The translations under genes and the position numbers were made by a program. Below, one piece after another: positions 1-25,516 of a stretch of 48,483 nucleotides of DNA. How positions within the stretch are numbered: position 1 is the stretch's first letter; every line of letters starts with the position of its first letter. The DNA is from Chthoniobacterales bacterium. Lineage in GTDB: Bacteria; Verrucomicrobiota; Verrucomicrobiia; Chthoniobacterales; Chthoniobacteraceae. The notes under the pieces were generated by a model. It ran no database searches. It worked only from the letters and a program-made list of their open reading frames with translations, and had not been told where the DNA came from. The stretch spans positions 1 to 48,483 of the forward strand of contig JBGTNO010000018.1 in NCBI GenBank assembly GCA_041743065.1, given 5' to 3'.

Positions 1-376
1 GGCTAATATCTCGAATTTCTCGCCTTTCGGCTCCGGGAACCATTTCAAGACCCTGGGAAACTCGAGCTCTCCAACGAGATCCTCGCGCCATTTCCGCAAT
101 GTCTAGCCATTCTGATTTATCTGGAGATCCAACACCGTTGGGTGAGGTGTGTCAATAGCTGACCGCCAGCCTCCTCCTCTTGTTCAGAGCGATCAAGTCC
201 CACGCCCAAGCTTTCAATAGACCAAGGGCTTCGTGGGAGGTGTGCCTGAAACACCGAAATATCCGCCGTGAAATATCCTGCGGGTGTGACGCTTCAACGT
301 GCGTGGCTGCGGTGTTCGTTCTTTTTTGTCATATAGAGCGGCGCAGGCAATCTATGTAAGACCTGCGCCGCCATTT

Positions 377-450
377 CGCGGTCATCGTTCAAGAGCAGGA
401 TGCCTGGTTGCCAATCAGGCGATGCCGGTGCAATTCCGGCTGACCGCACC
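377..450 (+). tRNA. tRNA-Gly(GCC), non-canonical T-loop
   Basis: Acceptor GCGGTCA/TGACCGC; anticodon arm CCTGG-TTGCCAA-TCAGG; T arm GCCGG-TGCAATT-CCGGC; A73-CCA encoded. D-loop AAGAGCA lacks GG. Confidence 0.75.
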
Positions 451-473
451 ATTTTTCACTCATCATTATACCA

Positions 474-547
474 TACGGCGGGCGCCAGCTTGCGCAGCTC
501 GGTCTCCAAAACCAAGTGGGCTCGGGGCAGCACCGAGACGCCGTGCC
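474..547 (+). tRNA. tRNA-Trp(CCA), non-canonical T-loop
   Basis: Acceptor ACGGCGG/ACGCCGT (7:66 G.A); anticodon loop CTCCAAA; T arm CTCGG-GGCAGCA-CCGAG; G73-CCA. D region is irregular. Confidence 0.6.
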
Positions 548-559
548 ACTATTCAAAAA

Positions 560-632
560 TCGCGGGGGAGCCAGATGGGAAGGCAGCGGCCTCATAAGCC
601 GTCAACGAGCGGGTTCGATTCCCGCCCCCGCC
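560..632 (+). tRNA. tRNA-Met-type (CAU), canonical T-loop
   Basis: Anticodon arm GCGGC-CTCATAA-GCCGT; canonical T arm GCGGG-TTCGATT-CCCGC; D-loop with GGG. C1xC72 mismatch followed by 6 bp (initiator-like). A73 is followed by TCA, not CCA. Confidence 0.6.
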
Positions 633-643
633 ATCAATTTTAA

Positions 644-718
644 AGGGCCGCTAGATTAGTCAGGAAATCAGCCGGTTTGCACCCGGCAGTGCGGGGAGCA
701 TAGCCCCGGCGGTCCACC
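644..718 (+). tRNA. tRNA-Ala(UGC), non-canonical T-loop
   Basis: Acceptor GGGCCGC/GCGGTCC with G3.U70; D arm GATT-AGTCAGGA-AATC; anticodon arm GCCGG-TTTGCAC-CCGGC; T arm CGGGG-AGCATAG-CCCCG; A73-CCA. Confidence 0.8.
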
Positions 719-728
719 ATTTTTGTTA

Positions 729-840
729 AATCGCGGGAAGGTTGAGAACCCGACGCAACTGCGCCTTCGATGGACGCGGAGCGCATTCTGCGTAGCCGCC
801 GGAGCGGCAAAACCCGGGGAGTTTGGCTCCCGCCGATGCC
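729..840 (+). ncRNA. oversized tRNA-like unit, fold ambiguous
   Basis: 112 nt ending GCCGATG-CCA. Contains D arm GCGG-AGCGCATT-CTGC (775-790) and hairpin GCCGC-CGGA-GCGGC (794-807), homologous to unit 1796-1869. Acceptor pairing only 5/7; no 7-nt anticodon loop found. Confidence 0.3.
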
Positions 841-853
841 ATAGCGTTTCCCT

Positions 854-926
854 CTGTGAAGGGATGCGCTATCGCGCAGGCGTTCATAAGCTCTCTTATC
901 GTGGTGCGACTCCACGTCCCGCAACC
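854..926 (+). tRNA. degenerate tRNA-like unit with CAU loop
   Basis: T arm CGTGG-TGCGACT-CCACG; A73-CCA; loop TTCATAA. The anticodon stem has 2 mismatches and the acceptor needs a 2-nt bulge. Confidence 0.35.
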
Positions 927-934
927 ATTTCAGA

Positions 935-1022
935 TGCGGCGGTAGATCGCTAAAGACGCGAACCGGTCTGTAAAACCGGAGTCCTATCGGGCCGGTCGGG
1001 AGCGTTACCCGGACGCCGCACC
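935..1022 (+). tRNA. tRNA-Tyr(GUA), class II
   Basis: Acceptor GCGGCGG/ACGCCGC (7:66 G.A); anticodon arm CCGGT-CTGTAAA-ACCGG; 16-nt variable arm; T arm TCGGG-AGCGTTA-CCCGG; A73-CCA. Confidence 0.7.
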
Positions 1023-1023
1023 A

Positions 1024-1099
1024 CGGTCGTGGAGAGGATCAGCAGACTCGCCTGCCCGTCAAGCAGGAGACAGCGGGGGCAGCACCCGTCACGACCGCC
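1024..1099 (+). tRNA. tRNA-Asp(GUC), C33
   Basis: Acceptor GGTCGTG/CACGACC; anticodon arm CCTGC-CCGTCAA-GCAGG; T arm GCGGG-GGCAGCA-CCCGT; G73-CCA. Confidence 0.8.
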
Positions 1100-1108
1100 A
1101 TTTTCAGA

Positions 1109-1183
1109 CTTCCCCGTAGCTCAGCAGAAGAGCGCCGCTCTGCGAAGGCGGAGGCCGCTGGTGCGACTCCAGCCGGGGAAACC
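1109..1183 (+). tRNA. tRNA-Arg(GCG)
   Basis: Acceptor TTCCCCG/CGGGGAA; D arm GCTC-AGCAGAA-GAGC; anticodon arm CCGCT-CTGCGAA-GGCGG; T arm GCTGG-TGCGACT-CCAGC; A73-CCA. Confidence 0.8.
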
Positions 1184-1188
1184 ATTTA

Positions 1189-1263
1189 TCGGGCACGAGG
1201 AAGATAGCAATCCGCGCCGCTTGGGACGGCGAGACACCCGGAGCGTAACCGGGGTGCCCGACC
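1189..1263 (+). tRNA. tRNA-Pro(UGG)
   Basis: Acceptor CGGGCAC/GTGCCCG; anticodon arm CGCCG-CTTGGGA-CGGCG; T arm CCCGG-AGCGTAA-CCGGG; A73-CCA. Confidence 0.8.
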
Positions 1264-1272
1264 ATTTTCATT

Positions 1273-1337
1273 TGCTCCCGTGGCCGAGCAGAACAGAGGC
1301 ATCCGTCTTCTAAACGGAACAACGCAGGTGCAATTGC
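1273..1337 (+). pseudogene. 3'-truncated tRNA-Arg(UCU)-like unit
   Basis: 5' acceptor strand GCTCCCG; D arm GCC-(12 nt)-GGC; anticodon arm TCCGT-CTTCTAA-ACGGA; T-like hairpin CGCAG-GTGCAA-TTGCG. No complementary 3' strand before the next unit. Confidence 0.4.
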
Positions 1338-1416
1338 GGCTCCAGCCGCTATGCAATTTCCGCTCCGCGCCATGAGGGGGTGTGCTATCGCACCGGGCGT
1401 TCCTGCCGGGAGTGCC
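1338..1416 (+). pseudogene. degenerate tRNA-like unit, anticodon not assignable
   Basis: 3' end CGGGAGT-G-CCA pairs 6/7 with GCTCCAG (1338-1344) and 7/7 with GCTCCCG (1273-1279). Internal arms are poorly formed. Confidence 0.3.
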
Positions 1417-1431
1417 ATTTCAAAATTCCAA

Positions 1432-1506
1432 TTCCTCTCAATGCACAAAGTGTGCAGCCCGCCTGTTAAGCGGTGTGAGCCTGGTGCGATTCCAGGGGGA
1501 GGAGCC
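1432..1506 (+). tRNA. tRNA-Asn(GUU)
   Basis: Acceptor TCCTCTC/GGGAGGA; D arm TGCA-CAAAGTG-TGCA; anticodon loop CTGTTAA; T arm CCTGG-TGCGATT-CCAGG; G73-CCA. Confidence 0.8.
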
Positions 1507-1510
1507 ATTT

Positions 1511-1598
1511 TGGACAGTCAACCGGACCAGCGTGCCGGCGCCGGCCTGAACCCGGATGGAGCCGCAAGGCTTGAGGAGCATGTCCTCGGCTGTCCGCC
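1511..1598 (+). tRNA. tRNA-Ser(UGA), class II, C33
   Basis: Acceptor GGACAGT/GCTGTCC; anticodon stem CCGG/CCGG with loop CCTGAAC; variable arm AGCC-GCAA-GGCT; T arm TGAGG-AGCATGT-CCTCG. G73 is followed by CCC, not CCA. Confidence 0.65.
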
Positions 1599-1601
1599 CT
1601 T

Positions 1602-1725
1602 TTCCCGCGGTGTAACAGGCACACCTCGCGATTTCATAAATCGCAGATCTGGGTGCGATTGCCGCTTTAGGTTCGAAAGTAATTCAGGGGGGCTAACTCG
1701 CGTTGGCCGGTTCCCGGCGGGATCC
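1602..1725 (+). ncRNA. oversized (124 nt) tRNA-like unit with CAU anticodon arm
   Basis: Anticodon arm GCGAT-TTCATAA-ATCGC; T-like arm around TGCGATT with a G.G closing pair. 3' end GGCGGGA-T-CCA (1715-1725) pairs 6/7 with TCCCGCG (1602-1608). Confidence 0.35.
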
Positions 1726-1732
1726 AATTTCT

Positions 1733-1795
1733 CGCCCGCATGGTGCAAAAGCAGCACGTCTGGTTCTCAGCCAGAATGCTATGCGCGGAAGCGCT
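1733..1795 (+). pseudogene. tRNA-Glu(CUC)-like 5' body without own 3' acceptor strand
   Basis: GCCCGCA; D arm GTGC-AAAAGCA-GCAC; anticodon arm TCTGG-TTCTCAG-CCAGA; then GCGC-GGAA-GCGC hairpin in place of a T arm. Confidence 0.4.
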
Positions 1796-1869
1796 CACCT
1801 GCAACGCGGAGCGGTGACTGCATGGCGGCAGGAGCCGCAACACTCGGAGCATTACCAGGTGCGGGTGCC
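1796..1869 (+). ncRNA. anticodon-less tRNA-like RNA
   Basis: Acceptor ACCTGCA/TGCGGGT (7 bp); D arm GCGG-AGCGGTGA-CTGC; T arm CTCGG-AGCATTA-CCAGG; G73-CCC. The anticodon position holds GCGGC-AGGA-GCCGC (5 bp plus tetraloop). Confidence 0.45.
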
Positions 1870-1874
1870 CCTTT

Positions 1875-1948
1875 CCCCTCCATAGCTCAAAAGCAGAGCA
1901 CCCGGCCGATAACCGGGCGACCGGGGAGCATTACCTCGTGGAGGGACC
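1875..1948 (+). tRNA. tRNA-Ile(GAU), C33
   Basis: Acceptor CCCTCCA/TGGAGGG; D arm GCTC-AAAAGCA-GAGC; anticodon arm CCCGG-CCGATAA-CCGGG; T arm CGGGG-AGCATTA-CCTCG; A73-CCA. Confidence 0.8.
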
Positions 1949-1952
1949 ACTC

Positions 1953-2027
1953 TGGCTGCGTAGCTGAGAGAGATTAGCGCCTCGCTGAAGACGAGGAGAG
2001 TCCGGCGCGATACCGGACGCAGCCACC
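1953..2027 (+). tRNA. tRNA-Phe(GAA)
   Basis: Acceptor GGCTGCG/CGCAGCC; anticodon arm CCTCG-CTGAAGA-CGAGG; T arm TCCGG-CGCGATA-CCGGA; A73-CCA. Confidence 0.8.
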
Positions 2028-2036
2028 ATTTTTCAT

Positions 2037-2111
2037 CGCGTCATTGGTGTAACAGCAAGCACGGCGGTCTTCCAAACCGCGGGCGTCGGGGCAGCACCGG
2101 CATGGCGCACC
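2037..2111 (+). tRNA. tRNA-Gly(UCC)
   Basis: Acceptor GCGTCAT/ATGGCGC; D arm GTGT-AACAGCAA-GCAC; anticodon arm GCGGT-CTTCCAA-ACCGC; T arm GTCGG-GGCAGCA-CCGGC; A73-CCA. Confidence 0.8.
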
Positions 2112-2120
2112 ATTTTTCGA

Positions 2121-2197
2121 TTCCTCCGTGGCAGAGGTCAGCAATGCACTCCTCTCGTACAGGAGATCATGCCGGGGCAGCGCCGGCCGGAGGATCC
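2121..2197 (+). tRNA. tRNA-Thr(CGU)
   Basis: Acceptor TCCTCCG/CGGAGGA; anticodon arm CTCCT-CTCGTAC-AGGAG; T arm GCCGG-GGCAGCG-CCGGC; U73-CCA. Confidence 0.8.
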
Positions 2198-2204
2198 ATT
2201 TTAG

Positions 2205-2280
2205 TGGAGGTCGTGATGTAACAGCCAGCATTCGATCCTGTGAAGATCGCTGAGCGGGGGCAGCACCCGTCGACCTCCCC
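2205..2280 (+). tRNA. tRNA-His(GUG) with encoded G-1
   Basis: G-1 (2205) lies opposite C73 (2277). Acceptor GAGGTCG/CGACCTC; D arm ATGT-AACAGCCA-GCAT; anticodon arm CGATC-CTGTGAA-GATCG; T arm GCGGG-GGCAGCA-CCCGT; CCA. Confidence 0.8.
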
Positions 2281-2290
2281 ACTTTCATAA

Positions 2291-2366
2291 GCGCGCACAA
2301 GGCAAAGTCGTCGAACCGGCGGTCTGCAAAACCGCTTTACCCGGTGCGAGTCCGGGGTGCGCGTCC
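2291..2366 (+). tRNA. tRNA-Cys(GCA)
   Basis: Acceptor CGCGCAC/GTGCGCG; anticodon arm GCGGT-CTGCAAA-ACCGC; T arm CCCGG-TGCGAGT-CCGGG; U73-CCA. Confidence 0.75.
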
Positions 2367-2371
2367 ACTTT

Positions 2372-2442
2372 TGGGGCCATCACTGAAGAGCAGGATGGCG
2401 CATTCGCATTGCGTTGATCGGGGTGCAATTCCCCGTGGCTCC
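2372..2442 (+). tRNA. tRNA-Ala(CGC)
   Basis: Acceptor GGGGCCA/TGGCTCC with G3.U70; anticodon arm GCGCA-TTCGCAT-TGCGT; T arm CGGGG-TGCAATT-CCCCG; A73; no CCA. D stem is weak. Confidence 0.65.
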
Positions 2443-2451
2443 AGTTTTTTA

Positions 2452-2526
2452 TCGGGCACGAGGAAGACAGCAATCCGCGCCGTTCGGATCGGCGAGACAC
2501 TCGGGGCAGCACCGAGGTGCCCGACC
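2452..2526 (+). tRNA. tRNA-Pro(CGG)
   Basis: Acceptor CGGGCAC/GTGCCCG (same as 1189-1263); anticodon arm CGCCG-TTCGGAT-CGGCG; T arm CTCGG-GGCAGCA-CCGAG; A73-CCA. Confidence 0.8.
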
Positions 2527-2538
2527 ACTTTTCGAAAA

Positions 2539-2610
2539 CTCCGCCAAAGCGTAGGCAGCGACGCACCCGGTCGGTAACCGGGAGAGGCCGGTGCATGCCC
2601 GGCTGGCGGA
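2539..2610 (+). tRNA. tRNA-Thr(GGU), C33
   Basis: Acceptor TCCGCCA/TGGCGGA; D arm GCGT-AGGCAGCG-ACGC; anticodon arm CCCGG-TCGGTAA-CCGGG; T arm GCCGG-TGCATGC-CCGGC. U73 is followed by CGC. Confidence 0.7.
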
Positions 2611-2623
2611 TCGCTTTTCAGAA

Positions 2624-2761
2624 TCCCGGGGAAGAGCACCGGTCGCTCGTCAGCCTCAGAAGCTGGAGGCAGTTGGTTCGATTGCCAGCGTCTTCCGACG
2701 CTGCCCTTTGGGCTGTGCTGTCGCACAGGCTGTCTCGCCACTCGCTCCAACCCCCGGAACC
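2624..2761 (+). ncRNA. oversized (138 nt) tRNA-like unit with CAG anticodon arm
   Basis: D arm GAGC-ACCGGTC-GCTC; anticodon arm TCAGC-CTCAGAA-GCTGG; T arm GTTGG-TTCGATTG-CCAGC; then hairpins GCGTC-TTCC-GACGC and TGTGC-TGTC-GCACA. 3' end CCCCGGA-A-CCA pairs 6/7 with CCCGGGG (2624-2630). Confidence 0.35.
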
Positions 2762-2767
2762 ACTTTT

Positions 2768-2843
2768 ACGCTCCGTAGCATAACGAGCAGTGCGGCGGTC
2801 TCATAAGCCGTCAGGTGCTGGTGCGATTCCAGCCGGAGCGACC
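2768..2843 (+). tRNA. tRNA-Met/Ile2-type (CAU)
   Basis: Acceptor CGCTCCG/CGGAGCG; D arm GCAT-AACGAGCA-GTGC; anticodon arm GCGGT-CTCATAA-GCCGT; T arm GCTGG-TGCGATT-CCAGC; A73-CCA. Confidence 0.8.
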
Positions 2844-2849
2844 ATCTTT

Positions 2850-2941
2850 GGGAAGTTAAAGCGGACAAGCGAGCCGCCGCCGGTTGGAAGCCGGACAGAC
2901 CTCGACTTCGAGGTTGTGGAGCATGCCCACTGACTTCCGCC
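2850..2941 (+). tRNA. tRNA-Ser(GGA), class II
   Basis: Acceptor GGAAGTT/GACTTCC; D arm GCGG-(9 nt)-CCGC; anticodon loop TTGGAAG; variable arm ACCTCG-ACTT-CGAGGT; T arm GTGG-AGCATGC-CCAC; G73-CCA. Confidence 0.75.
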
Positions 2942-2946
2942 ATTCT

Positions 2947-3088
2947 TGGGTCGCAAGCATTGCAGTGATGCAGCGGTTTGACGCTCCGGCGTCCATGCTG
3001 TCAGTGCTCCGCGCCTTTGGAGAGGGGCGCTGCGCGCGCCCTGCATTCTTAAACCGCAGAGCGCGGGGCAGCACCGTGGCGACCCACC
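2947..3088 (+). ncRNA. oversized (142 nt) tRNA-like unit, no clean anticodon loop
   Basis: GGGTCGC (2947-2953) pairs with GCGACCC-A-CCA (3078-3088). D arm GCAT-TGCAGTG-ATGC; T arm CGCGG-GGCAGCA-CCGTG (3061-3077). The interior holds hairpins GACGC-TCCG-GCGTC and GCGCC-(10 nt)-GGCGC. Confidence 0.3.
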
Positions 3089-3093
3089 ATTCT

Positions 3094-3236
3094 TGGAAGC
3101 TGAACCGGACAGCCGAGCGCAGCGAGACAGCCAGCCTAACTTCCTTTCAAAACAATGCGGGCAACCGTGCCGGGACTGTTTCGAAAACAGATCGTTCCGC
3201 CTTGCGGAATGGGGAGCATGCCCTCCGGCTTCCGCC
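3094..3236 (+). tRNA. oversized unit containing a class II tRNA-Ser(CGA)-like body
   Basis: From ~3155: D arm CGG-(9 nt)-CCG; anticodon stem CTGT/ACAG with loop TTCGAAA; variable arm TTCCG-CCTTG-CGGAA; T arm GGGG-AGCATGC-CCTC; G73-CCA. The only complementary 5' strand (GGAAGCT) sits 54 nt upstream at 3094-3100. Confidence 0.45.
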
Positions 3237-3244
3237 ACTTTTTT

Positions 3245-3321
3245 CGCCAGCGTGGATGGACAAGAAATCTCACCGCTTTTGTAAAGCGGAGGATGCGGGA
3301 GCGTTACCCGCCGCTGGCTCC
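3245..3321 (+). tRNA. tRNA-Thr(UGU)
   Basis: Acceptor GCCAGCG/CGCTGGC; anticodon arm CCGCT-TTTGTAA-AGCGG; T arm GCGGG-AGCGTTA-CCCGC; U73-CCA. Confidence 0.75.
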
Positions 3322-3329
3322 ACTTCCAA

Positions 3330-3403
3330 TTGCCCCGTGATGTAACAGCAGCATAACCGGCTCTGACCCGGTTCGCGTTGGTGCGAATCCAGCCGGGGCA
3401 GCC
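3330..3403 (+). tRNA. tRNA-Gln(CUG)
   Basis: Acceptor TGCCCCG/CGGGGCA; D arm ATGT-AACAGCA-GCAT; anticodon arm ACCGG-CTCTGAC-CCGGT; T arm GTTGG-TGCGAAT-CCAGC; G73-CCA. Confidence 0.8.
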
Positions 3404-3417
3404 ATTTCTCCAATTCC

Positions 3418-3501
3418 TGCGCCGGTAGATCATCAGCAGATCGCCGCACCGATCCGCCGCGGCGGACGGAGGCAGGCGGGGCAGCACCGCCCCGGCGCAC
3501 C
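3418..3501 (+). ncRNA. anticodon-less tRNA-like RNA with extended central helix
   Basis: Acceptor GCGCCGG/CCGGCGC; D arm GATC-ATCAGCA-GATC; T arm GGCGG-GGCAGCA-CCGCC; A73-CCA. The central arm is a long helix (3448-3468, one bulge) capped by tetraloop CGCG; there is no 7-nt loop. Confidence 0.45.
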
Positions 3502-3509
3502 ATCTTCAA

Positions 3510-3585
3510 CGCTCCCGTAGCTCAACGTATAGAGCACCGCGCTTCGAACGCGGAGGTTGCAGGCGAAATTCCTGCCGGGAGTGCC
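3510..3585 (+). tRNA. tRNA-Arg(UCG)
   Basis: Acceptor GCTCCCG/CGGGAGT; D arm GCTC-AACGTATA-GAGC; anticodon arm CCGCG-CTTCGAA-CGCGG; T arm GCAGG-CGAAATT-CCTGC; G73-CCA. Confidence 0.8.
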
Positions 3586-3592
3586 ACCCTTC

Positions 3593-3667
3593 TCCCGGCG
3601 TAGCCCAATGCAGAGACAACGAGTTCAGACCTCGTTCAGTGCGGGTGCAAGTCCTGCCGCCGGGACC
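3593..3667 (+). tRNA. tRNA with Leu anticodon CAG, class I architecture
   Basis: Acceptor CCCGGCG/CGCCGGG; anticodon arm ACGAG-TTCAGAC-CTCGT; 5-nt variable loop; T arm GCGGG-TGCAAGT-CCTGC; A73-CCA. Confidence 0.7.
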
Positions 3668-3672
3668 ATTTT

Positions 3673-3747
3673 CGCTCCCGTAGCCCAACGCAGCAGAGGC
3701 AGCCGGCTTAAACCCGGCCAAGTGTCGGTGCGAATCCGACCGGGAGC
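3673..3747 (+). tRNA. tRNA with Leu anticodon UAA, class I architecture
   Basis: Acceptor GCTCCCG/CGGGAGC; anticodon arm GCCGG-CTTAAAC-CCGGC; 5-nt variable loop; T arm GTCGG-TGCGAAT-CCGAC; A73; no CCA. Confidence 0.7.
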
Positions 3748-3755
3748 ACGAGTTA

Positions 3756-3830
3756 AGCCCGCGTAGTCCAACGCAGAGACATCCGCCTCAAAAACGGACC
3801 AGTGCAGGTGCAAGTCCTGCCGCGGGCACC
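3756..3830 (+). tRNA. tRNA with Leu anticodon CAA, class I architecture
   Basis: Acceptor GCCCGCG/CGCGGGC; D arm GTC-(8 nt)-GAC; loop CTCAAAA on stem TCCG/CGGA; T arm GCAGG-TGCAAGT-CCTGC; A73-CCA. Confidence 0.7.
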
Positions 3831-3832
3831 AA

Positions 3833-3923
3833 AGGAACGTGAACCGGACAAGCGAGCCGGGATTCTTTGCTAAGGAAATCGATCCGCGCTGCGGATTGGG
3901 GAGCATGCCCTCCGCGTTCCGCC
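3833..3923 (+). tRNA. tRNA-Ser(GCU), class II
   Basis: Acceptor GGAACGT/GCGTTCC; D arm CCGG-(9 nt)-CCGG; anticodon loop TTGCTAA; variable arm ATCCG-CGCTG-CGGAT; T arm GGGG-AGCATGC-CCTC; G73-CCA. Confidence 0.75.
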
Positions 3924-3936
3924 ATTTTCTCCGTAA

Positions 3937-4017
3937 CGACCTCTCGTGGTGTAAAGCAGCACGAACGTCCTATGCCCGTTGAACCTGAGACGCGGGTACG
4001 AGTCCTGGCGGGAGGTC
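3937..4017 (+). tRNA. atypical tRNA-like unit, possible UAU anticodon, C33
   Basis: 10-bp terminal helix GACCTCTCGT/GCGGGAGGTC; D arm GTGT-AAAGCA-GCAC; stem AACG/CGTT with loop CCTATGC; 12-nt variable region; T arm CGGG-TACGAGT-CCTG; no CCA. Confidence 0.4.
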
Positions 4018-4028
4018 TTTTCCTTTAC

Positions 4029-4104
4029 TGCCCGTGAATGCAAAGAGCCGAGCGCCTCGCCTTTCAAGTGAGACCTAGCCGGTGCGAGTCCGGCCACGGG
4101 TGCC
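4029..4104 (+). tRNA. tRNA-Glu(UUC)
   Basis: Acceptor GCCCGTG/CACGGGT; anticodon arm CTCGC-CTTTCAA-GTGAG; T arm GCCGG-TGCGAGT-CCGGC; G73-CCA. Confidence 0.75.
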
Positions 4105-4111
4105 ATTTTCA

Positions 4112-4187
4112 TGCTCGCGTAGCCCAACAGTAGAGGCACTGCGTCGAGAGCGCAGCCAGTGCGGGTGCGAATCCTGCCGCGAGCACC
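4112..4187 (+). tRNA. tRNA with Leu anticodon GAG, class I architecture, C33
   Basis: Acceptor GCTCGCG/CGCGAGC; anticodon arm CTGCG-TCGAGAG-CGCAG; 5-nt variable loop; T arm GCGGG-TGCGAAT-CCTGC; A73-CCA. Confidence 0.75.
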
Positions 4188-4194
4188 ATTTGAA

Positions 4195-4268
4195 GGGGCC
4201 GAAAGCATTAAAGTGATGCAACGGACTTTTAATCCGTCGAACGGGGAGCATTACCCCGGCGGCCCACC
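4195..4268 (+). tRNA. tRNA-Lys(UUU)
   Basis: Acceptor GGGCCGA/GCGGCCC (7:66 A.G); D arm GCAT-TAAAGTG-ATGC; anticodon arm ACGGA-CTTTTAA-TCCGT; T arm CGGGG-AGCATTA-CCCCG. A73 is followed by CCT. Confidence 0.7.
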
Positions 4269-4269
4269 T

Positions 4270-4343
4270 TTCCCGAGTCGTCTAATAGGAGGACGCCTGG
4301 CCTACACCCAGGAGTCGGGGGAGCATAACCTCCACGGGCGACC
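4270..4343 (+). tRNA. tRNA-Val(UAC)-like, C33, weak acceptor
   Basis: D arm GTC-(9 nt)-GAC; anticodon arm CCTGG-CCTACAC-CCAGG; T arm GGGGG-AGCATAA-CCTCC; A73-CCA. The 5' acceptor strand pairs only 4 bp. Confidence 0.55.
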
Positions 4344-4598
4344 ATCTTTCCACTGGACTCAGTTCCAGCAGCCGACCGGCATCGCCGGATCCGGTTCTGC
4401 ATATCGGGAGTCCAGTGTCTGGCAAATCGGCGCAAGCCGACTGGGTTCGACTCCCATCATACGGGTCCGTGACGGTGACCAGCCCGGACCCAGTCGGGGC
4501 AGCCGCGACGCAGCCTGCGCGGGAGAGCCATTGCACTTTCGCCCGTTGCCGAGCCGCGGTCGCCGTCACGGGCCACAACTTTCAACCAAGGAGGAAAC
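4344..4598 (+). other. structured non-coding leader between the array and the first CDS
   Basis: 9-bp helix ACTGGACTC (4351-4359)/GAGTCCAGT (4407-4415) enclosing two hairpins. TCGGC-GCAA-GCCGA hairpin, then a canonical T-arm-like TGGG-TTCGACT-CCCA (4441-4455). GGGTCC/GGACCC helix (4462-4490). The ...GGGAGAG-CCA motif ends at 4529. RBS AAGGAGG at 4587-4593. Confidence 0.4.
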
Positions 4599-5405
4599 AT
4601 GAACATCGAATACATCATCGGCGGCATCATGGTCGCCATTGCCATCGCAGTGGCGGTTCGCACCGTGCGTGCCCGCTACCGTCACGAATACGTCGTCGCC
4701 GAAGGTTCCGTCGCGCTGATCTACCACGAGGGCAAACTCGCCGGTCGATGGGACGCGGGCCGCCACGTCCGCTGGGGCCGCCATTACCGCGTCGATCTAA
4801 TCGACGTGCGTAAGACGCTGCTCCAGGTCCAGGGTCAGGATGTCCTCAGCGCCGACAATGTCGGCGTGAAGGTCAGCCTCGTGCTCACGACTCAGATCGT
4901 CGATCCAGTCAAGAACGTGCAGAGCGTGGACAACTACGTTCTGCATCTCTACAGCGCCGCGCAGTCGGCGGTTCGCGCCGTCGTTGCGGGCGTCGCGATG
5001 GACTCGCTGCTCAACCAGCGGGTCGCCATCAGCGGCCAGCTTCTCGAACTGCTGGCACCCCAGGCCGAGGAAATCGGCGTGAAGGTGCACGCAGTCGAAG
5101 TCCGCGACGTAATGCTGCCGGGCGACCTACGCCGCGCCTTCTCCGAAGTGCTGAAGGCGAAGCAGGAGGGCCAGGCAGCGCTGGAACGTGCCCGTGGCGA
5201 GTCGGCCGCACTCCGCAACCTTGCAAATGCGGCGCGTCTCATCGAGAGCCAGCCGGGCGTGGCAACGCTGCGCTTCCTGCAGACGCTCTCCGGCAACGAC
5301 GCAAAGCAGATGGTTGTGATGAGCGACATGTCTGCTTTCGCGCCAGTGTTCAAGGGCCGCTCCGGAAGTCGGTCGGCAACTGAAACCGAGTCGGAGGAAA
5401 CCTAA
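4599..5405 (+). CDS. SPFH/band-7 (slipin-like) membrane protein
   Basis: N-terminal hydrophobic helix, then an SPFH core (VDLIDVRK...QDVLSADNV...AVEVRDVMLP...KAKQEG). ATG preceded by AAGGAGG. Confidence 0.8.
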   Translation: MNIEYIIGGIMVAIAIAVAVRTVRARYRHEYVVAEGSVALIYHEGKLAGRWDAGRHVRWGRHYRVDLIDVRKTLLQVQGQDVLSADNVGVKVSLVLTTQIVDPVKNVQSVDNYVLHLYSAAQSAVRAVVAGVAMDSLLNQRVAISGQLLELLAPQAEEIGVKVHAVEVRDVMLPGDLRRAFSEVLKAKQEGQAALERARGESAALRNLANAARLIESQPGVATLRFLQTLSGNDAKQMVVMSDMSAFAPVFKGRSGSRSATETESEET

Positions 5406-5509: not shown

Positions 5510-6286
5510 ATGCATGGGAACGAAGTCCTCAAGCGCGTCCGCCACGCGCTCGCTCAGGTCGAGGCCGAGCGGAACGTGCGCGTGCTTTTCGCGTGCGAGA
5601 GCGGCAGTCGGGCGTGGGGCTTTGCCTCGCGTGACAGCGACTACGACGTGCGCTTCCTCTACGTCCACCGGCGAGACTGGTATCTTTCAGTCGAGGATCG
5701 GCGCGACGTCATCGAACAGCCCATCGCCGATGATCTCGACGTGAGCGGCTGGGAGCTGCGCAAGGCGCTGCGGCTGCTCCGCAAGAGCAATCCGCCGTTG
5801 CTTGAGTGGCTGAAGTCACCGGTCGTGTATCGTCACGATCCGGTCTTCGCCGCCGAGTTCGGCGCGCTGGCGGCGGAGTTCTATTCGCCACGGCGCTGCT
5901 TCGCGCATTACCTGCACATGGCCTTCGGCAACTGGCGCGACTATCTGCGCGGTCGCGAGGAAGTGAGTCTGAAGAAGTATCTCTACGTCTTCCGTCCGCT
6001 GCTCGCGTGCCGCTGGATCGAGCGTCAGCTCGGTCAGGTGCCGATGCTCTTCGCGCAACTCGTGGAGAGCGTGCTCGACGAAGCCGACGTGCGCGCCGCC
6101 CTCGCGGAACTCGTCGCGCGCAAGCAGGCCGGCGAGGAGCTGGCTATCGCGCCTTCGGTCGAAGCGCTTTCGCGTTTCATCGAGGACGAGCTGCCAAGGC
6201 TCGAGGCGCTCAACGAGCCAGACGATGCCAAGGGCGAAGTGGAGGAGCTGAACGGCTTCTTCCGCCGCTACGCGCTCGCGGCTTGA
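5510..6286 (+). CDS. Pol-beta-fold nucleotidyltransferase, RlaP/COG3541-like
   Basis: N-terminal motif LFACESGSRAWGFASRDSDYDVRFLY is typical of the RNA-ligase-associated Pol-beta NTase family. Good RBS (AAAGGAGG). Confidence 0.65.
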   Translation: MHGNEVLKRVRHALAQVEAERNVRVLFACESGSRAWGFASRDSDYDVRFLYVHRRDWYLSVEDRRDVIEQPIADDLDVSGWELRKALRLLRKSNPPLLEWLKSPVVYRHDPVFAAEFGALAAEFYSPRRCFAHYLHMAFGNWRDYLRGREEVSLKKYLYVFRPLLACRWIERQLGQVPMLFAQLVESVLDEADVRAALAELVARKQAGEELAIAPSVEALSRFIEDELPRLEALNEPDDAKGEVEELNGFFRRYALAA

Positions 6287-6500: not shown

Positions 6501-7307
6501 ATGAACTCAAAAACGATTGCGAATCAGTTCGCCCGCATGGACGCACGGTTCCGTGTCGTTCGTCCAGATGACCTGCCGCGGCGGCGTCAGCGCACCGACT
6601 ACGCGCTCGATATTGTCACCGATAAGCAGGGCCAACTTTTCGAGATGCAGCTTAGCGCTGAACGCGAGGCACAGCTCGAAATCGACGTGCTTCAATGCGA
6701 GCATCACGACCGGCATTTGCTCCTGCTTGTGAAAACGCCGGAGGCGAAGGATCGCTTCCTGTGCGGACACGACGAGCGGGAGTGGTTTGTCGCCGCGGTG
6801 CCCGGCGGTGCGTCAAGCGTGGTGCAGGCGAAGGTCGCTCTGCAACCAAGTGGAGCACGAGCCGCCGCCGATAGCGCCGGGCTAAACCTGCGTCAGCGCA
6901 CCCGCCGGCACAACCGAGCCTTCATCCGTCAGGGTGAATGGTTCTTCGTGCCCGTGCCGGAACTGCGCGTGGATGAAAAGTTCATCCTGCGCAACGAGCC
7001 GATCAGTCGCGGCGGCGGAAAGCCGCACCTCGTCGCTGAGCTTCACCGCTCCGGTGGCGAGAAGGTGTGGGTCTGCTCGCGTTATCCGAACGGTCTGACC
7101 GAATCGGACTACAAGCGGACGCTCGCGGACAACCGCGAGGCGAAGCGCTGGGGCTGGCAGCAGCGCGTCCGCAATGCGGGCGTGTTTGCGCGCGGTACCG
7201 TGCGTCACCGCGACCACGCGACGATCACGCTGCACAAGTGGCACCAGGTCTGGATGAACACCGAGAACACGACTCGTCAAATGGCGAACGTCGCATTCCT
7301 CGACTGA
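6501..7307 (+). CDS. hypothetical protein, no recognisable domain
   Basis: 268-aa ORF with coding-like composition, located between the NTase and rtcB on the same strand. Confidence 0.55.
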   Translation: MNSKTIANQFARMDARFRVVRPDDLPRRRQRTDYALDIVTDKQGQLFEMQLSAEREAQLEIDVLQCEHHDRHLLLLVKTPEAKDRFLCGHDEREWFVAAVPGGASSVVQAKVALQPSGARAAADSAGLNLRQRTRRHNRAFIRQGEWFFVPVPELRVDEKFILRNEPISRGGGKPHLVAELHRSGGEKVWVCSRYPNGLTESDYKRTLADNREAKRWGWQQRVRNAGVFARGTVRHRDHATITLHKWHQVWMNTENTTRQMANVAFLD

Positions 7308-7443: not shown

Positions 7444-8838
7444 ATGAACAACCAAGACCTCATCCGTCTCGGCGTGCCGCAGGGCGACGCCTTGAAACTG
7501 TCTCACGAACACATGCGCCGCCTGTTTGCTGGTGGACTCGATCGCGAGCAGGTCGAGGCCGAGATCTGCGACATCGTCGCAGATCCGCCGGCTTTCTTCG
7601 CCGACGAACTGCGTGCACCGCTGGCTCGTGCCCTCTACCGGCCGGCTTTTACGCCGCGCGCGGAACTCGCGCCGTGGCGTCAGTGGGGCGAGGGCCTTGA
7701 AGCCGAGGCGGTGAAGCAGATGGCGAATGCATGTGCGCTGCCGGTCGCGGTGGCGGGCGCGCTCATGCCGGATGCGCACGTCGGCTACGGCCTGCCGATC
7801 GGCGGCGTGCTCGCGACGGATAACGCGGTGATTCCTTACGCCGTCGGCGTGGACATCGGCTGCCGTATGAAAATGACCGTCTTCGATCGGAAGGTGAACA
7901 CGATTTCCGGGCAGAAGGATCGTCTCGCGAACATCATCGAGAGCGAGACGCGCTTTGGCGTGGGCTGTGAGTTCAAGCAGCGCCGCGAGCATGACGTCAT
8001 GGATGAAGACTGGGGCGTTTCCCCGGTCACACAGCGTCTCCGTGACAAGGCTTGGGCTCAGCTCGGAACGAGCGGAAGCGGCAATCACTTTGTGGAATTC
8101 GGAACTTTCACGGTGTCGGAGCCGGTGCTTGGACTGGATCCTGGAGAATACGTGGCGCTGCTCTCGCACAGCGGGTCCCGCGGCACCGGCGCTCAGGTTT
8201 GCCAGCATTACAGCCGCCTCGCTATGGATCGTCACGCGGATCTGCCAAAAGAGCTGAAGCATCTCGCGTGGCTCTCGCTCGATGAAGCCGCTGGCCAGGA
8301 ATACTGGGCCGCAATGAATCTGATGGGGCTCTACGCCGCGGCGAACCACGCGCTCATCCACAGGCACATCGCACGCAAACTCGGCGCGCATGTGGTCCTC
8401 GACATCGAGAACCACCACAACTTTGCGTGGAAAGAGCGCCATGAAATCGCCGGCGTGGAACGTGAAGTGATCGTCCACCGCAAAGGCGCGACCCCGGCGG
8501 GCGCTGGAGTGCTGGGTATCATCCCTGGCTCGATGGCGTCGCCCGGCTACGTCGTACGCGGCAAAGGCGAGCCGGAATCGCTGACCAGCGCTTCCCACGG
8601 AGCCGGCCGCGTGATGAGTCGGACGAAGGCGATGCAGTCCTTCACGTGGAGTGCCGTAAAGAAACTCCTCTCCGAGCGCGACGTGACGCTGCTCTCCGCG
8701 GGCCTCGATGAAGTGCCCGGCGTTGACAAGGACCTCGCACCAGTGATGGCCGCGCAAACCGACTTGGTCGAAGTGCTCGGTCGATTCGACCCGCGCCTGG
8801 TGAAAATGTGCCCGAGCGGCGAACGTGCGGAGGACTGA
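7444..8838 (+). CDS. rtcB: RNA 3'-phosphate/2',3'-cyclic phosphate ligase RtcB
   Basis: Motifs GSGNHFVEFG, HSGSRGTG, NHHNFAWKE, HRKGATPA, SASHGAGR. Confidence 0.9.
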   Translation: MNNQDLIRLGVPQGDALKLSHEHMRRLFAGGLDREQVEAEICDIVADPPAFFADELRAPLARALYRPAFTPRAELAPWRQWGEGLEAEAVKQMANACALPVAVAGALMPDAHVGYGLPIGGVLATDNAVIPYAVGVDIGCRMKMTVFDRKVNTISGQKDRLANIIESETRFGVGCEFKQRREHDVMDEDWGVSPVTQRLRDKAWAQLGTSGSGNHFVEFGTFTVSEPVLGLDPGEYVALLSHSGSRGTGAQVCQHYSRLAMDRHADLPKELKHLAWLSLDEAAGQEYWAAMNLMGLYAAANHALIHRHIARKLGAHVVLDIENHHNFAWKERHEIAGVEREVIVHRKGATPAGAGVLGIIPGSMASPGYVVRGKGEPESLTSASHGAGRVMSRTKAMQSFTWSAVKKLLSERDVTLLSAGLDEVPGVDKDLAPVMAAQTDLVEVLGRFDPRLVKMCPSGERAED

Positions 8839-9426
8839 ATGATGAGTGACGTACTGAACAAAACCACAGTGCTGGTGCTGAATCGAAACTGGCAGGCGAT
8901 CCACGTCAAAACGCCAACCCAGGCATTTTGCATGATGGCCGCCGATGTGGCGACCGCCCTCGACATCGAGGACACCGGCGGCATGCGTCCAGTGAAGTGG
9001 ACCGAGTGGCTCACTCTGCCGGTGCGCGCGGACGATAACTCCGTGCGCACCGTGCATGGGGCCGTGCGTGTTCCCACGGTCCTCGTGCTGGCGAACTACG
9101 CGAAGGTGCCGAAGCGGCGCCCGAAGTTCTCCGCGAAGAACATCTGGCAGCGGGACGGTGCGACCTGCCAGTACACGGGGCGCAAACTCGCGCCCCACGA
9201 AGGCAACATCGATCACGTAGTGCCTCGTTCACGCGGCGGTAGAACCGCTTGGGAGAACTGCGTTCTCGCCCACCGCGAGATCAACTCGCGAAAGGCAGAC
9301 AGGTTGCCCGAAGAAATCGGCCTGCGTCTGCGTCGGCAACCCGCCGCGCCACGAGAACTGCCTGCCACCATGCATATTCGCAATGCGCACAGCGTACGCG
9401 ACTGGGAGCATTTTCTGAAGTCGTGA
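8839..9426 (+). CDS. HNH endonuclease
   Basis: CQYTG...IDHVVPRSRGG...NCVLAHREINSRK (HNH/His-Me finger). The start abuts the rtcB stop codon. Confidence 0.8.
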   Translation: MMSDVLNKTTVLVLNRNWQAIHVKTPTQAFCMMAADVATALDIEDTGGMRPVKWTEWLTLPVRADDNSVRTVHGAVRVPTVLVLANYAKVPKRRPKFSAKNIWQRDGATCQYTGRKLAPHEGNIDHVVPRSRGGRTAWENCVLAHREINSRKADRLPEEIGLRLRRQPAAPRELPATMHIRNAHSVRDWEHFLKS

Positions 9427-9674
9427 TCCGGAGAAGCTTGCGCCCAGACCTGCGCAAATCGCCGAAGTTCAATAATTGTGGCGATATAAGAGGAAAAGGA
9501 ATAGTCCTTCTGAATCTGTGAAACGACTGTAGGGGTTGGGGGAGAAGCTGCGATCTGCGGCATATACTGAACGGACCCTAACCCGAGAAGCCTTCCCAGG
9601 CTTGTCGCTTGTGCCGGATCTCTCAACGATGCACGCTCGTTCCGACAGTGATGATAATCCGATCAATTCGCGTA

Positions 9675-10945
9675 ATGGAACGTCTGGCCCTCGCTGCTTT
9701 GATGCTCTTTGCCGTGATGCCTGATGCGGCCGTTGCCGAAACGAGAATCGCGGTAGCAGCGATCAACGAGCTGGGCCTCGAACTCCAACGGAACCTTCCG
9801 GGCGGGAACGAAAATCTGTGCGTTTCCCCGTACTCGATCCAGAATGCTTTGGCCATGACGTATGCCGGGGCGGATGGCGAGACCCGCACTGAGATGGGGA
9901 AGGTCCTTCACTTCCCAGAGGAGGAGGCTGCGCTGCACGATTCTTTCGACGCCTTGCGAGGTGAGATCGAGAAATCATCGGCTGAAACGGTCAAGCTGGC
10001 GCAGAAGTCGAAGAAATGGGGGGGGCCAGCAGTCCTATCGAGATCCATCTGGCCAACGCACTTTTTGGGCAGACCGGTTACGATTTCCGGGAATCCTTTC
10101 TAGAGCTTGTGAAGGAACACTATGGCGCGGGGTTGGGAAGACTCGACTTTGCGGGTGATGGTGGCAAGGCGGCGTCGGAGCGGATCAATCGATGGGTCGA
10201 ATTGCAGACCAAGGGGCGCATTGCCAACCTCCTTGAGGATTTGGACCCGCAAAACCGCCTGATTCTGGTCAATGCGATCTATTTCAAAGGACCGTGGGCC
10301 AGTGAGTTCCCCGCCACGGCCACGAAACCGGCGCCGTTTCACGTGGATGGCGGAACGCCGGTGAATGTGCCGACGATGAAGCTCCAAAGTCAGTACGGTT
10401 ACGCGAAGCGGGATGGTTACGTGGCGCTGAGCATCCCTTACGTCGGCGACGAATTGCATTTTCTGATTCTCTTGCCCGATGACCTCAAGGGACTCCCTGC
10501 CCTGGAGGCGCGGCTCACCGCGGAGATCGTGGCCGATTGTGCCGAGTTGGAAGCGGCAGAAGTGGAGGTATGGCTCCCGCGTTTCAAGCTCGAGCCGCCG
10601 ACGCTGGATTTGAAACAGTTCCTACAGGAAATCGGGATGAAAGCAGCGTTTGATCAGCCACCTGGCAGCGCCAACTTTGATCGGCTCGCCCCGCGGCGGG
10701 CCGACGATTACCTTTTCATTTCGGAAGTTTCGCACAAGACGTTCATTGCGGTAGACGAGCGTGGCACCGAAGCGGCGGCCGCGACTGCCGTTCGCATGCT
10801 GGCGTTCGGAGCGCCGCCCGAGCCACCCAGACCCATCGTCGTGAGGATCAATCGTCCTTTTTACTACGCCATTCAGCACCGACCCACCGGAGCCTGCCTC
10901 TTCATGGGGAGAGTGGTGGATCCGCGGCCGCCATCAACGCACTGA
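9675..10945 (+). CDS. secreted serpin, reading frame interrupted at a G8 tract
   Basis: Signal peptide MERLALAALMLFAVM; SPYSIQNALAMTYAGA; FKGPWASEF; C-terminal NRPFYYAIQH...FMGRVVDP. Frame changes at G8 (10018-10025); one extra G restores a single ORF. Confidence 0.8.
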
Positions 10946-25483: not shown

Positions 25484-25516
25484 AGAAAATAAAAAAGGAG
25501 CGTCGATCAGGCGTCC
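25484..25516 (-). terminator. intrinsic terminator of the helicase gene
   Basis: On the minus strand: hairpin GGACGCC...GGCGCTCC-like (25497-25516, one bulge), followed by TTTTTTATTTTC. Confidence 0.5.

Follow-up and report, generated by a model that had tools for sequence, protein, structure and literature searches.

The contact between G18 of the D-loop and pseudouridine 55 (Psi55) of the T-loop is held to be among the most invariant in transfer RNA (tRNA), and Psi55 to be the most conserved of all RNA modifications. In an array of 41 tRNA genes at positions 378-4341 of contig JBGTNO010000018.1 (a 48,483-nucleotide stretch of assembly GCA_041743065.1, referred to here in its full length as the window), G stands at position 55 (G55) in 38 units (93%), and A18-G19 stands in the D-loops where G18-G19 is expected. 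The locus raises the question of whether the elbow contact has been lost, misread or exchanged for another, and of what a whole set of tRNAs altered in this way would be for. We consider it probable, at roughly 0.72, that this is a supernumerary L-array with an altered A18-G55 elbow, carried by a probable Chthoniobacterales genome and located directly upstream of an RNA-repair cluster. L-arrays are long, non-periodic, horizontally spread arrays of tRNA genes with an HNH gene alongside, and Verrucomicrobia are among the phyla that carry them (PMC8421152).

The 41 units lie head to tail, all on the forward strand, and were recovered with a cloverleaf parser and by hand reading of the gaps; units with long variable arms or interruptions were also parsed by hand. 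At 41 co-oriented units in 3.97 kb, the array exceeds the 20 genes and 2 genes per kb that serve as lower bounds for an L-array, and its more than 35 distinct anticodons cover all 20 amino acids in the non-repeating order that is typical of L-arrays. Most units end in N-CCA followed by TTT. About 31 are clean cloverleaves with a 7-bp acceptor stem, a 5-bp T stem (7/5) and a 7-nt anticodon loop, and about ten are interrupted or irregular. ARAGORN detects 12 of the 41, and 16 exceed the gathering score of the Rfam tRNA model (RF00005), the remainder scoring below 29 bits. A covariance model trained on 44 tRNAs of the G55 type, all from loci other than the window, recovers 27 of the window units with E<1e-8 and 35 with E<=1e-3, with no match outside positions 1-5000 of the 48 kb searched. 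As standard finders miss most of these genes, the tRNA counts of Verrucomicrobiota and of phage contigs are likely underestimates. A promoter and terminator scan gave nothing exceeding background.

The T-loops of the G55 units fall into four classes: T54-G55-C56-R, where R is a purine (16 units), A54-G55-C56-R-T (12), G54-G55-C56-A-G (8) and C54-G55 (2). An earlier model reading made from the letters of the stretch (the sequence-only reading) had put the first three at about 15, 12 and 8, and the unit parse bears these counts out. Its T-loop coordinates are each one base low: TGCAATT of the first unit occupies 429-435, the two copies of TTCGATT 614-620 and 2677-2683, and TTCGACT 4446-4452. It had also counted three units with a canonical TTCGA loop. 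Two of these stand as array units and are the only ones with U55 (561-633 and the degenerate 2625-2759); the third, at 4446-4452, sits in the downstream spacer, outside the 41 units. The one remaining unit without G55 has A55 (3940-4016). Position 54 is U in just 16 of the 38 G55 units, and the canonical combination of G18-G19 with U54-U55-C56 is absent from all 38. Position 20 of the D-loop is mostly C in the window, which explains why an AGCA motif had been proposed; it is C, T or A across related arrays, and the actual motif is A18-G19.

The register of these loops is secure. Since the T stems are 5 bp long, closed by G53:C61 and topped by 7-nt loops, and since U is missing from loop positions 1-4 in both the G54 and the A54 class, U55 cannot be recovered by re-registering the arms. 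The Rfam alignment made with cmscan places the G under U55 with the top posterior probability, and the covariation of positions 19 and 56 described below fixes the register independently. In control viral loci, which were chosen by a canonical T arm, 469 tRNAs have U55 and 7 have G55 (~1-1.4%). Set against 38 of 41 in the window, this excludes a chance origin of the G55 excess.

We pooled 958 unique cloverleaves from the window, viral contigs and bacterial genomes and compared the two loops. U55-C56 is accompanied by G18-G19 in 355 of 375 cloverleaves and G55-C56 by A18-G19 in 456 of 520 (Fisher p ~1e-191, a value inflated by the relatedness of the sequences). Because of this inflation by kinship, switches were counted within clusters of near-identical tRNAs, and at least 25 clusters sharing an anticodon and at least 80% identity in the stems contain both elbow states. 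In one such pair, a tRNA at L012 734-815 (L-numbers are labels of comparison loci, each with its own coordinates) has the D-loop taattGGcagc with the T-loop TTCAAGT, and its counterpart at L024 9673-9753 has taatAGaagc with TGCAAGT; the two are 95% identical elsewhere. The syntenic tRNA-Leu GAG gene is canonical in L032 (4050; TTCAAAT, ctGGaaga) and of the variant type in the window (4113-4185) and in L100. The coupling of positions 18 and 55 is a true tertiary covariation. Counts of stem pairs on our own alignment were given no weight, as the sequences had been chosen for pairing and the argument would be circular.

Positions 19 and 56 also covary. If position 18 is taken to be A when 55 is G and G when 55 is U, and position 19 to be the complement of 56, the predicted D-loop dinucleotide is found in 44 of the 57 tRNAs that lack C56, against 18.6 +/- 3.2 in permutations. 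The window unit at 3511-3583, with the T-loop CGAAATT and the D-loop aacGTata, exemplifies this covariation. The variants observed span all Watson-Crick combinations (U19-A56, A19-U56 and C19-G56) independently of the state of 18 and 55, with examples at the viral loci L019 (4355), L026 (5263), L038 (6111) and L108 (855). Positions 54 and 58 of G55 tRNAs are occupied by U-A (252), G-G (124), A-U (74), C-A (38) and C-C (13). Of the G55 tRNAs, 99% keep a purine at 57, and G53:C61 is conserved to at least 97% within every T-loop class. The elbow retains all T-loop elements except the identities at positions 18, 55, 54 and 58, which change in pairs.

A T-loop consists of five residues with a reverse-Hoogsteen pair between the first and fifth and a base from outside stacked between the fourth and fifth (PMC4810234). 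In the tRNA elbow, G18 is stacked between residues 57 and 58, with a single hydrogen bond to Psi55, and G19:C56 forms the exposed face for the ribosome, RNase P and T-boxes (PMC4810234). Where two T-loops interdigitate, the inserted base is residue 5 of the partner, typically the A from its closing U-A pair, and touches residue 2 of the receiving loop (PMC4810234). Such interdigitated loops, known from RNase P, T-box Stem I and the L1 stalk, belong to RNAs that dock onto tRNA (PMC4810234). They may serve as a structural precedent for A18 with G55. By analogy, A18 would take the place of G18, stacking between 57 and 58 and bonding to G55. Because G19:C56 is kept, the change would be internal to the elbow, with the outer face unchanged. 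What the change chiefly removes are the bases on which enzymes specific for U54, U55 or G18 act.

The stems bear on whether these genes are maintained. In each of four orthologous arrays (L032, L100, L122 and L106), 22-33 double compensatory stem changes are found against 3-6 broken pairs. Identity marks for the synthetases are also kept, with G3:U70 in both Ala units, G-1 and C73 in the His unit and U73 in the Cys unit. Compensation in the stems together with the retained Ala, His and Cys marks argues for selection, and to judge from these comparisons the units are genes under purifying selection on their stems, a minority excepted. The sequence-only reading had argued for a coordinated, selected change among units with intact stems; the 18/55 covariation and the compensatory changes sustain this, with one correction, namely disruption in about 10 of the 41 units.

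We scanned for G55 T arms with the pattern GGGGCAGCACC-N11-CCAYYY. Viral contigs gave at least 120 loci, and about 80 of the 120 matches listed are tRNA arrays with at least three cloverleaves on one strand. A scan of one genome per species gave 19 array loci among the 120 matches listed, 18 of them in named Verrucomicrobiota; the other 101 listed were rejected as chance matches in GC-rich genomes. The carriers include Verrucomicrobiaceae, Prosthecobacter, Opitutus, Akkermansiaceae, Chthoniobacter and Nibricoccus sp. IMCC34717, whose complete genome (NZ_CP119759.1) has its array at ~731.1-732.9 kb. The arrays of Verrucomicrobiota hold 223 G55, 13 U55 and 13 other tRNAs (~90% G55). The isolated phages phiCbK, Tunturi_5 and CeilingFan, examined as BLAST matches, have only canonical elbows, and no cultured phage carrier was found. 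These results support the view that the A18-G55 signature marks a mobile family of tRNA arrays of Verrucomicrobiota and related phage contigs, occurring sporadically elsewhere.

If the housekeeping tRNAs of this lineage had the same loops, the elbow would be a trait of the clade. Two stand-alone tRNAs are canonical: a tRNA-Ser CGA that has an integrase gene as its neighbor and lies 4.7 kb away from the array in a Verrucomicrobiaceae genome (L202), and a tRNA-Leu CAG among the housekeeping genes of L399, a 6.4-Mb genome of unconfirmed taxon without an array. From these two genes, the A18-G55 elbow looks like an array trait rather than a clade trait.

The array otherwise resembles the L-arrays described by Santamaria-Gomez et al. 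2021 (PMC8421152) and Tran et al. 2016 (PMC4758250), which likewise have dozens of co-oriented, non-periodic genes at ~10 per kb, an HNH neighbor, a neighboring or co-regulated rtcB, a patchy distribution and a presence in phages. L-arrays are co-regulated with rtcB under translational stress, staying silent until it sets in, and hen1-pnkP takes part in the same response (PMC8421152). Those papers differ in that the T-loop, the D-loop, G18 and U55 are unmentioned (PMC8421152, PMC4758250). The Anabaena plasmid L-array studied in PMC8421152 is mostly canonical, with G55/A18 in 2 of ~24 units, in contrast to 93% G55 in the window. One of the two plasmid genes is tRNA-Ile GAU (T-loop GGCAGTA, D-loop gaaaAGtga), which ARAGORN misses, and the other is tRNA-Glu CUC (T-loop TGCAACT, D-loop aaataAGataa). 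The operonic tRNA-Ile GAU has been detected and found aminoacylated in vivo, and operonic tRNAs are present in polysome fractions (PMC8421152). The window array fits an L-array of the known kind, and what appears to be new is the A18-G55 elbow.

Other unusual tRNAs are less close. The tRNA clusters of phages phiCbK, Karimacvirus CeilingFan and Tunturiibacter phage Tunturi_5 are also dense, encode CCA and show weak sequence similarity, but these three inspected isolates have only GG D-loops with TTCRA T-loops. The allo-tRNAs of soil Acidobacteria (Mukai et al. 2017, PMC5389517) share with the window units a non-canonical form, polycistronic genes that tRNA finders miss and a location near conflict systems; they differ in having 8/4 or 9/3 stems and long variable arms, and the elbow is not their described feature. 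We rejected an assignment of the units to the allo-tRNAs because every parsed unit has a 7-bp acceptor and a 5-bp T stem. The tRNA-Pyl and many animal mitochondrial tRNAs (reviewed in PMC7609411) are also natural tRNAs without the canonical elbow sequences. In those molecules the contact that the D-loop makes with the T-loop is lost or replaced and the loops have shrunk; unlike them, the window tRNAs keep the loop sizes, G19:C56, R57 and G53:C61, and a single tertiary pair is exchanged with covariation. U55 and G18 are treated as universal in two reviews of the elbow and T-loop (one of them PMC4810234). Our literature search found no paper on A18 with G55 in tRNA, although the library was incomplete and absence is not proven by it. 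The earlier suggestion that the signature is undescribed therefore stands as far as that search goes, but it is not unique to the window, since it recurs in related arrays.

The protein genes nearest to the array, all on the forward strand, encode an SPFH/Band 7 protein (4599-5405; Pfam PF01145, 2e-28), which is also the neighbor in L105, followed by the RNA-repair nucleotidyltransferase RlaP (5510-6286; PF10127, 4e-92), a conserved protein that we call X (6501-7307; more than 5000 homologues), the RNA ligase RtcB (7444-8838; PF01139, 1e-81) and an HNH endonuclease (8839-9426; Pfam HNH_4/HNH). The homologues of RlaP and protein X that are 80-95% identical are named Chthoniobacterales or Chthoniobacteraceae, and the probable taxon given for the window is based on them. 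Protein X has no match in Pfam, NCBIfam, PDB sequences or PDB folds; its AF2 model has a predicted local distance difference test (pLDDT) score of 87.5, and it is kept between RlaP and RtcB in the operons of Luteolibacter yonseiensis and of the array-free 6.4-Mb genome (L399).

This arrangement recurs. The rtcB gene lies 3 kb downstream of the array, and synteny of RtcB with an array is found in L105, L106, L146, L214 and L398. The HNH gene adjoins arrays in L106, L202, L226, L398 and the Anabaena plasmid, as it does in the window in keeping with L-arrays. An array followed by Band7, RtcB or HNH genes, singly or together, is seen in L105, L100, L146, L122, L214, L213, L130 and L398, the last being the cultured Luteolibacter yonseiensis (array at 9014-9906). 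In the metagenomic phage contig L106, which encodes a portal protein and a protease, the order is RtcB, G55 array, HNH. Among the compared loci, RtcB is linked to 8 of 41 G55-rich arrays versus 1 of 80 others, and HNH, more weakly, to 10 of 41 versus 9 of 80. Related arrays are present on viral contigs, one with a portal gene, and L399 has the RlaP-X-RtcB operon without an array; the window array may have been acquired horizontally. A second RNA-repair system lies at 19737-25308 and consists of Hen1 (19737-21137), a HEAT-repeat protein (20888-22756) and a Pnkp (22741-25308) that combines a kinase, a phosphatase and a ligase domain.

In our interpretation, the array tRNAs would be processed, charged and used as a supernumerary pool, probably stress-induced, that works alongside RNA repair. 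The altered elbow may free them from, or hide them from, factors that recognize the invariant GTTCGA box in RNA or DNA; modification enzymes, nucleases that act on the T-loop and homing endonucleases would be among these. Several observations weigh against this interpretation. About 10 of the 41 units have 50-130-nt insertions or degenerate stems, so that some of the array may be dead. Drift is also seen at other positions held to be universal: C33 replaces U33 in 12.5% of G55 tRNAs and 3.6% of U55 tRNAs, chiefly with GAT, GAG, GAC and TAC anticodons, and A8 replaces U8 in 22% versus 5%. Such U33 or U8 drift is seen in the window units that begin at 1025, 1876, 4113 and 4271, and it could reflect relaxed constraint. 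The housekeeping comparison is one of two stand-alone tRNAs, one of them from the unconfirmed taxon of L399, and the link of RtcB and HNH to G55-rich arrays is confounded by shared ancestry. The Anabaena tRNA-Ile GAU migrates aberrantly on acid gels (PMC8421152), and an HNH neighbor is likewise present at the Anabaena array, most of whose units are canonical, which bears on the proposed selective advantage.

The alternative that survives best is neutral: A18-G55 may be a tolerated and roughly equivalent substitute that appears occasionally in mobile tRNAs, which evolve fast, and that was fixed by descent, reaching near-universality in the Verrucomicrobiota arrays by way of a founder array and gene duplication without any benefit. 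A low background of G55 does exist in ~1.4% of the tRNAs of unrelated phage arrays and in the 2 of ~24 Anabaena units; orthologues retain their T-loop class across syntenic arrays, as inheritance predicts; and U33, U8 and C56 also vary in these arrays. We nevertheless regard it as unlikely, although clearly possible, since at least 25 separate coupled switches are found among close relatives and since 90% versus ~1% is a large skew for pure drift, even if shared descent could yield it. This rival addresses why the change spread and leaves the structure uncontested.

A bolder extension of the supernumerary-array interpretation, which we offer as speculative and somewhat doubtful, is that of a mobile tRNA lineage orthogonal in its elbow. 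Such tRNAs, having lost the invariant GTTCGA/T-Psi-C box, would be independent of TruB, TrmA and TrmH, would escape T-loop nucleases or homing endonucleases, and would be deployed together with RtcB and RlaP repair by arrays and phages, which might keep translation running while canonical tRNAs are attacked. A nuclease of the T-loop kind is the Burkholderia toxin CdiA-CT E479, whose cut falls between positions 54 and 55. The G19:C56 face would be retained for RNase P and the ribosome. The HNH protein beside the array could itself be one DNA endonuclease that homes on the box, the two DNA forms to be contrasted being GGTTCGAATCC and GGTGCGAATCC.

It is improbable that the units serve outside translation, whether by decoying or soaking up nucleases that target tRNA or by acting as substrates of, or signals to, RtcB and RlaP, with an odd elbow that avoids the ribosome. 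In favor of such a role, the array is tightly linked to two RNA-repair systems, a sponge function for operonic tRNAs was suggested by the authors of PMC8421152, and irregular acidobacterial tRNAs are charged but not used in Escherichia coli translation (PMC5389517). Against it stand distinct anticodons covering all 20 amino acids, retained synthetase identity marks, the retention of G19:C56 and of the cloverleaf dimensions, and the presence of Anabaena operonic tRNAs in polysome fractions.

Decay of a pseudogene array, in which the loops differ through lost constraint, is very improbable and is contradicted for most of the units. The interrupted or degenerate units, the low yield of ARAGORN and the 3 pseudogenes among the 26 genes of the Anabaena array (PMC8421152) are in its favor, but compensatory changes far exceed broken pairs, three tertiary pairs co-vary, G53:C61 and R57 are near-invariant, and decay does not account for position 55 being G in 38 units. 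A mis-registered alignment that hides a true U55 is refuted by the unambiguous stems and 7-nt loops, by the two U-free classes, by cmscan and by the 19:56 covariation.

If the altered-elbow L-array is accepted, hundreds of selected tRNAs with A18-G55 provide a natural alternative to the G18-Psi55 contact, and the rule-bound variation of 54/58 and 19/56 maps the elbow as a natural mutagenesis experiment would. It raises the questions of which partners need U54, U55 or G18 and of whether an altered elbow gives protection in conflicts that damage RNA. The array tRNAs could also be scaffolds for engineered tRNAs that evade the modification enzymes of a host.

The individual units are described here by T-loop class. 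Those with T54-G55 begin with unit 1, tRNA-Gly GCC (378-448; TGCAATT, D-loop aagAGca), which encodes CCA. Unit 5 is Met CAT-like with C1xA72 (732-924; TGCGACT) and has a ~130-nt insertion at 754-883 relative to L032. Unit 8 is tRNA-Arg GCG (1110-1181; TGCGACT, D-loop agcAGaa), and unit 10 is tRNA-Arg TCT (1274-1414; TGCAATT), with a 66-nt insertion (1336-1401) that precedes the T stem's 3' strand. Unit 11 is tRNA-Asn GTT (1433-1504; TGCGATT, D-loop caaAGtg). Unit 13 (1603-1723, hand parse) has a CAT anticodon, a short acceptor stem and the loop TGCGATT followed by a 52-nt insertion at 1661-1712. Unit 20 is tRNA-Cys GCA with U73 (2292-2364; TGCGAGT), unit 21 tRNA-Ala CGC with G3:U70 and without CCA (2373-2443; TGCAATT), and unit 23 tRNA-Thr GGT, also without CCA (2540-2611; TGCATGC; 72 bits with the G55 model). 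Unit 25 is tRNA-Met CAT (2769-2841; TGCGATT, D-loop aacgAGca) and unit 30 tRNA-Gln CTG (3331-3401; TGCGAAT, D-loop aacAGca). Four of the class are leucine tRNAs: unit 33, CAG (3594-3665; TGCAAGT), unit 34, TAA, without CCA (3674-3748; TGCGAAT), unit 35, CAA (3757-3828; TGCAAGT), and unit 39, GAG (4113-4185; TGCGAAT, D-loop caacAGtaga). Unit 38 is tRNA-Glu TTC (4030-4102; TGCGAGT).

The G54 class has the loop GGCAGCA in all but one of its members. These are unit 2, a tRNA-Trp CCA-like unit with an irregular D arm (475-545; 17.7 bits with the G55 model, hand parse), unit 7, tRNA-Asp GTC with C33 (1025-1097), unit 17, tRNA-Gly TCC (2038-2109; D-loop aacAGcaa), unit 19, tRNA-His GTG with G-1 at 2206 and C73 (2207-2278), unit 22, tRNA-Pro CGG (2453-2524), and unit 27, tRNA-Lys CTT (2948-3086), which relative to L032 3078-3148 has an anticodon-loop insertion of ~68 nt at 2979-3046. 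Unit 31 (3419-3499) is derived from Val GAC and has a longer hairpin in place of the anticodon loop. Unit 18, tRNA-Thr CGT (2122-2195), has GGCAGCG.

In the A54 class, unit 4 is tRNA-Ala TGC with G3:U70 retained (645-716; AGCATAG), and unit 6 tRNA-Tyr GTA with a long variable arm (936-1020; AGCGTTA, D-loop taaAGac; hand parse). Unit 9 is tRNA-Pro TGG (1190-1261; AGCGTAA). Long variable arms, parsed by hand, are also found in three serine units: unit 12, TGA-like, ending in CCC (1512-1596; AGCATGT), unit 26, GGA (2851-2939; AGCATGC), and unit 36, GCT (3834-3921; AGCATGC). A fourth, unit 28, tRNA-Ser CGA (3095-3234; AGCATGC), is interrupted in the D region by ~52 nt at 3118-3169. Unit 14, tRNA-Glu CTC (1734-1867; AGCATTA), has a 67-nt insertion in the variable region at 1776-1842 that is absent from L032 1912-1982. 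The rest are unit 15, tRNA-Ile GAT with C33 (1876-1946; AGCATTA), unit 29, tRNA-Thr TGT (3246-3319; AGCGTTA), unit 40, tRNA-Lys TTT (4196-4266; AGCATTA, D-loop taaAGtg), and unit 41, Val TAC-like with a weak acceptor stem (4271-4341; AGCATAA; 23.7 bits with Rfam and 32.5 bits with the G55 model).

The C54 loops belong to unit 16, tRNA-Phe GAA (1954-2025; CGCGATA, D-loop agagAGat), and unit 32, tRNA-Arg TCG (3511-3583), the G55, A56 example given above, which would form a U19-A56 pair. Among the units without G55, unit 3 is tRNA-Met CAT (561-633; TTCGATT, D-loop agatGGgaa), with a 1-72 mismatch and without CCA, and unit 24 (2625-2759; TTCGATT) is degenerate with an inserted two-hairpin segment. 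Unit 37 (3940-4016; TACGAGT) has a TAT anticodon, a long variable region and C33 and is without CCA. Its relative at L106 5064-5151 has the loop TGCGAGT, and it recalls the abundant allo-tRNA-UAU group of Acidobacteria, from which it differs by its 7/5 stems. An acceptor mismatch at 1-72 (C1xC72 or C1xA72) occurs in three units (561-633, 732-924 and 2625-2759), two with CAT anticodons and two with canonical T-loops. A 1-72 mismatch is a mark of the bacterial initiator tRNA.

At least six units are interrupted, by the segments 754-883, 1336-1401, 1661-1712, 1776-1842, 2979-3046 and 3118-3169. The insertion sites differ: two follow T-loop base 60, and the others lie in the anticodon loop, the variable loop, the D region and the anticodon stem. 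Several of the insertions share a ~66-nt design of two hairpins, GCGGC-TCCA-GCCGC and, further on, a G-run, a 5-bp hairpin and GGCGTT. The same element is found at L032 1587-1654, directly 3' of an intact tRNA-Arg TCT. The insertions may represent a small mobile element or a scar of recombination or, with RtcB adjoining, a segment removed at the RNA level. They were rejected as known introns, as none has an Rfam intron match; a lone sub-threshold group II match lies elsewhere, at 4076-4226. At 50-130 nt they are below the size of any group I intron known to us.

Both flanks of the array contain structured elements on the forward strand. Directly upstream of unit 1, a 10-bp hairpin at 338-373 (stem 338-347 with 362-371) ends in CCA-TTT, and its stem is kept in the L032 orthologue through a compensatory change from A-T to G-C; a role as leader, as signal for processing or as minihelix is conceivable. 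The spacer that separates the array from the first protein gene (4345-4598) is conserved in L105 and L100, has a fold z-score of -4.8 with a long hairpin, and contains the canonical T-arm-like sequence GGGTTCGACTCCC at 4442-4456. An identity as a Y RNA was considered and rejected, the sole Rfam match (Deinococcus Y-RNA, 4388-4493) reaching 20.7 bits against a threshold of 80 bits. No TROVE protein is found among the window open reading frames (ORFs) scanned with Pfam. Elsewhere, a TROVE (Ro-like) fragment adjoins the Verrucomicrobiaceae array of L202 (5260-5886, reverse strand), and a Ro-like protein adjoins the tRNA cluster of Streptomyces phage CeilingFan (L243 8797-10075). These two cases suggest that tRNA arrays may be linked more widely to genes for RNA quality control.

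Several further features were noted in the remainder of the window. A serpin gene at 9609-10945 appears to be split into two ORFs (9609-10103 and 10016-10945), which may reflect a frameshift or a sequencing error. The region 25507-32239 encodes two large helicase-type proteins, one with DUF4011 and AAA_11 and the other with AAA_12, an MTES_1575 nuclease domain and WGR, together with an M48/SprT-like peptidase, and is possibly a defense module. A nicotinamide adenine dinucleotide (NAD) salvage cluster at 34502-41758 comprises a PnuC-like transporter, NadR-like, NAPRTase, Prs-like and NrtR proteins, an ADP-ribosylglycohydrolase and a nicotinamidase-like protein of the isochorismatase family. It is followed by a second Band7 protein (41821-42846) and by an AbiEi/AbiEii toxin-antitoxin pair at 45668-47552. 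A group II intron lies at the edge of the window, with an Rfam match at 47544-47699 and a reverse transcriptase ORF at 47739-48476.

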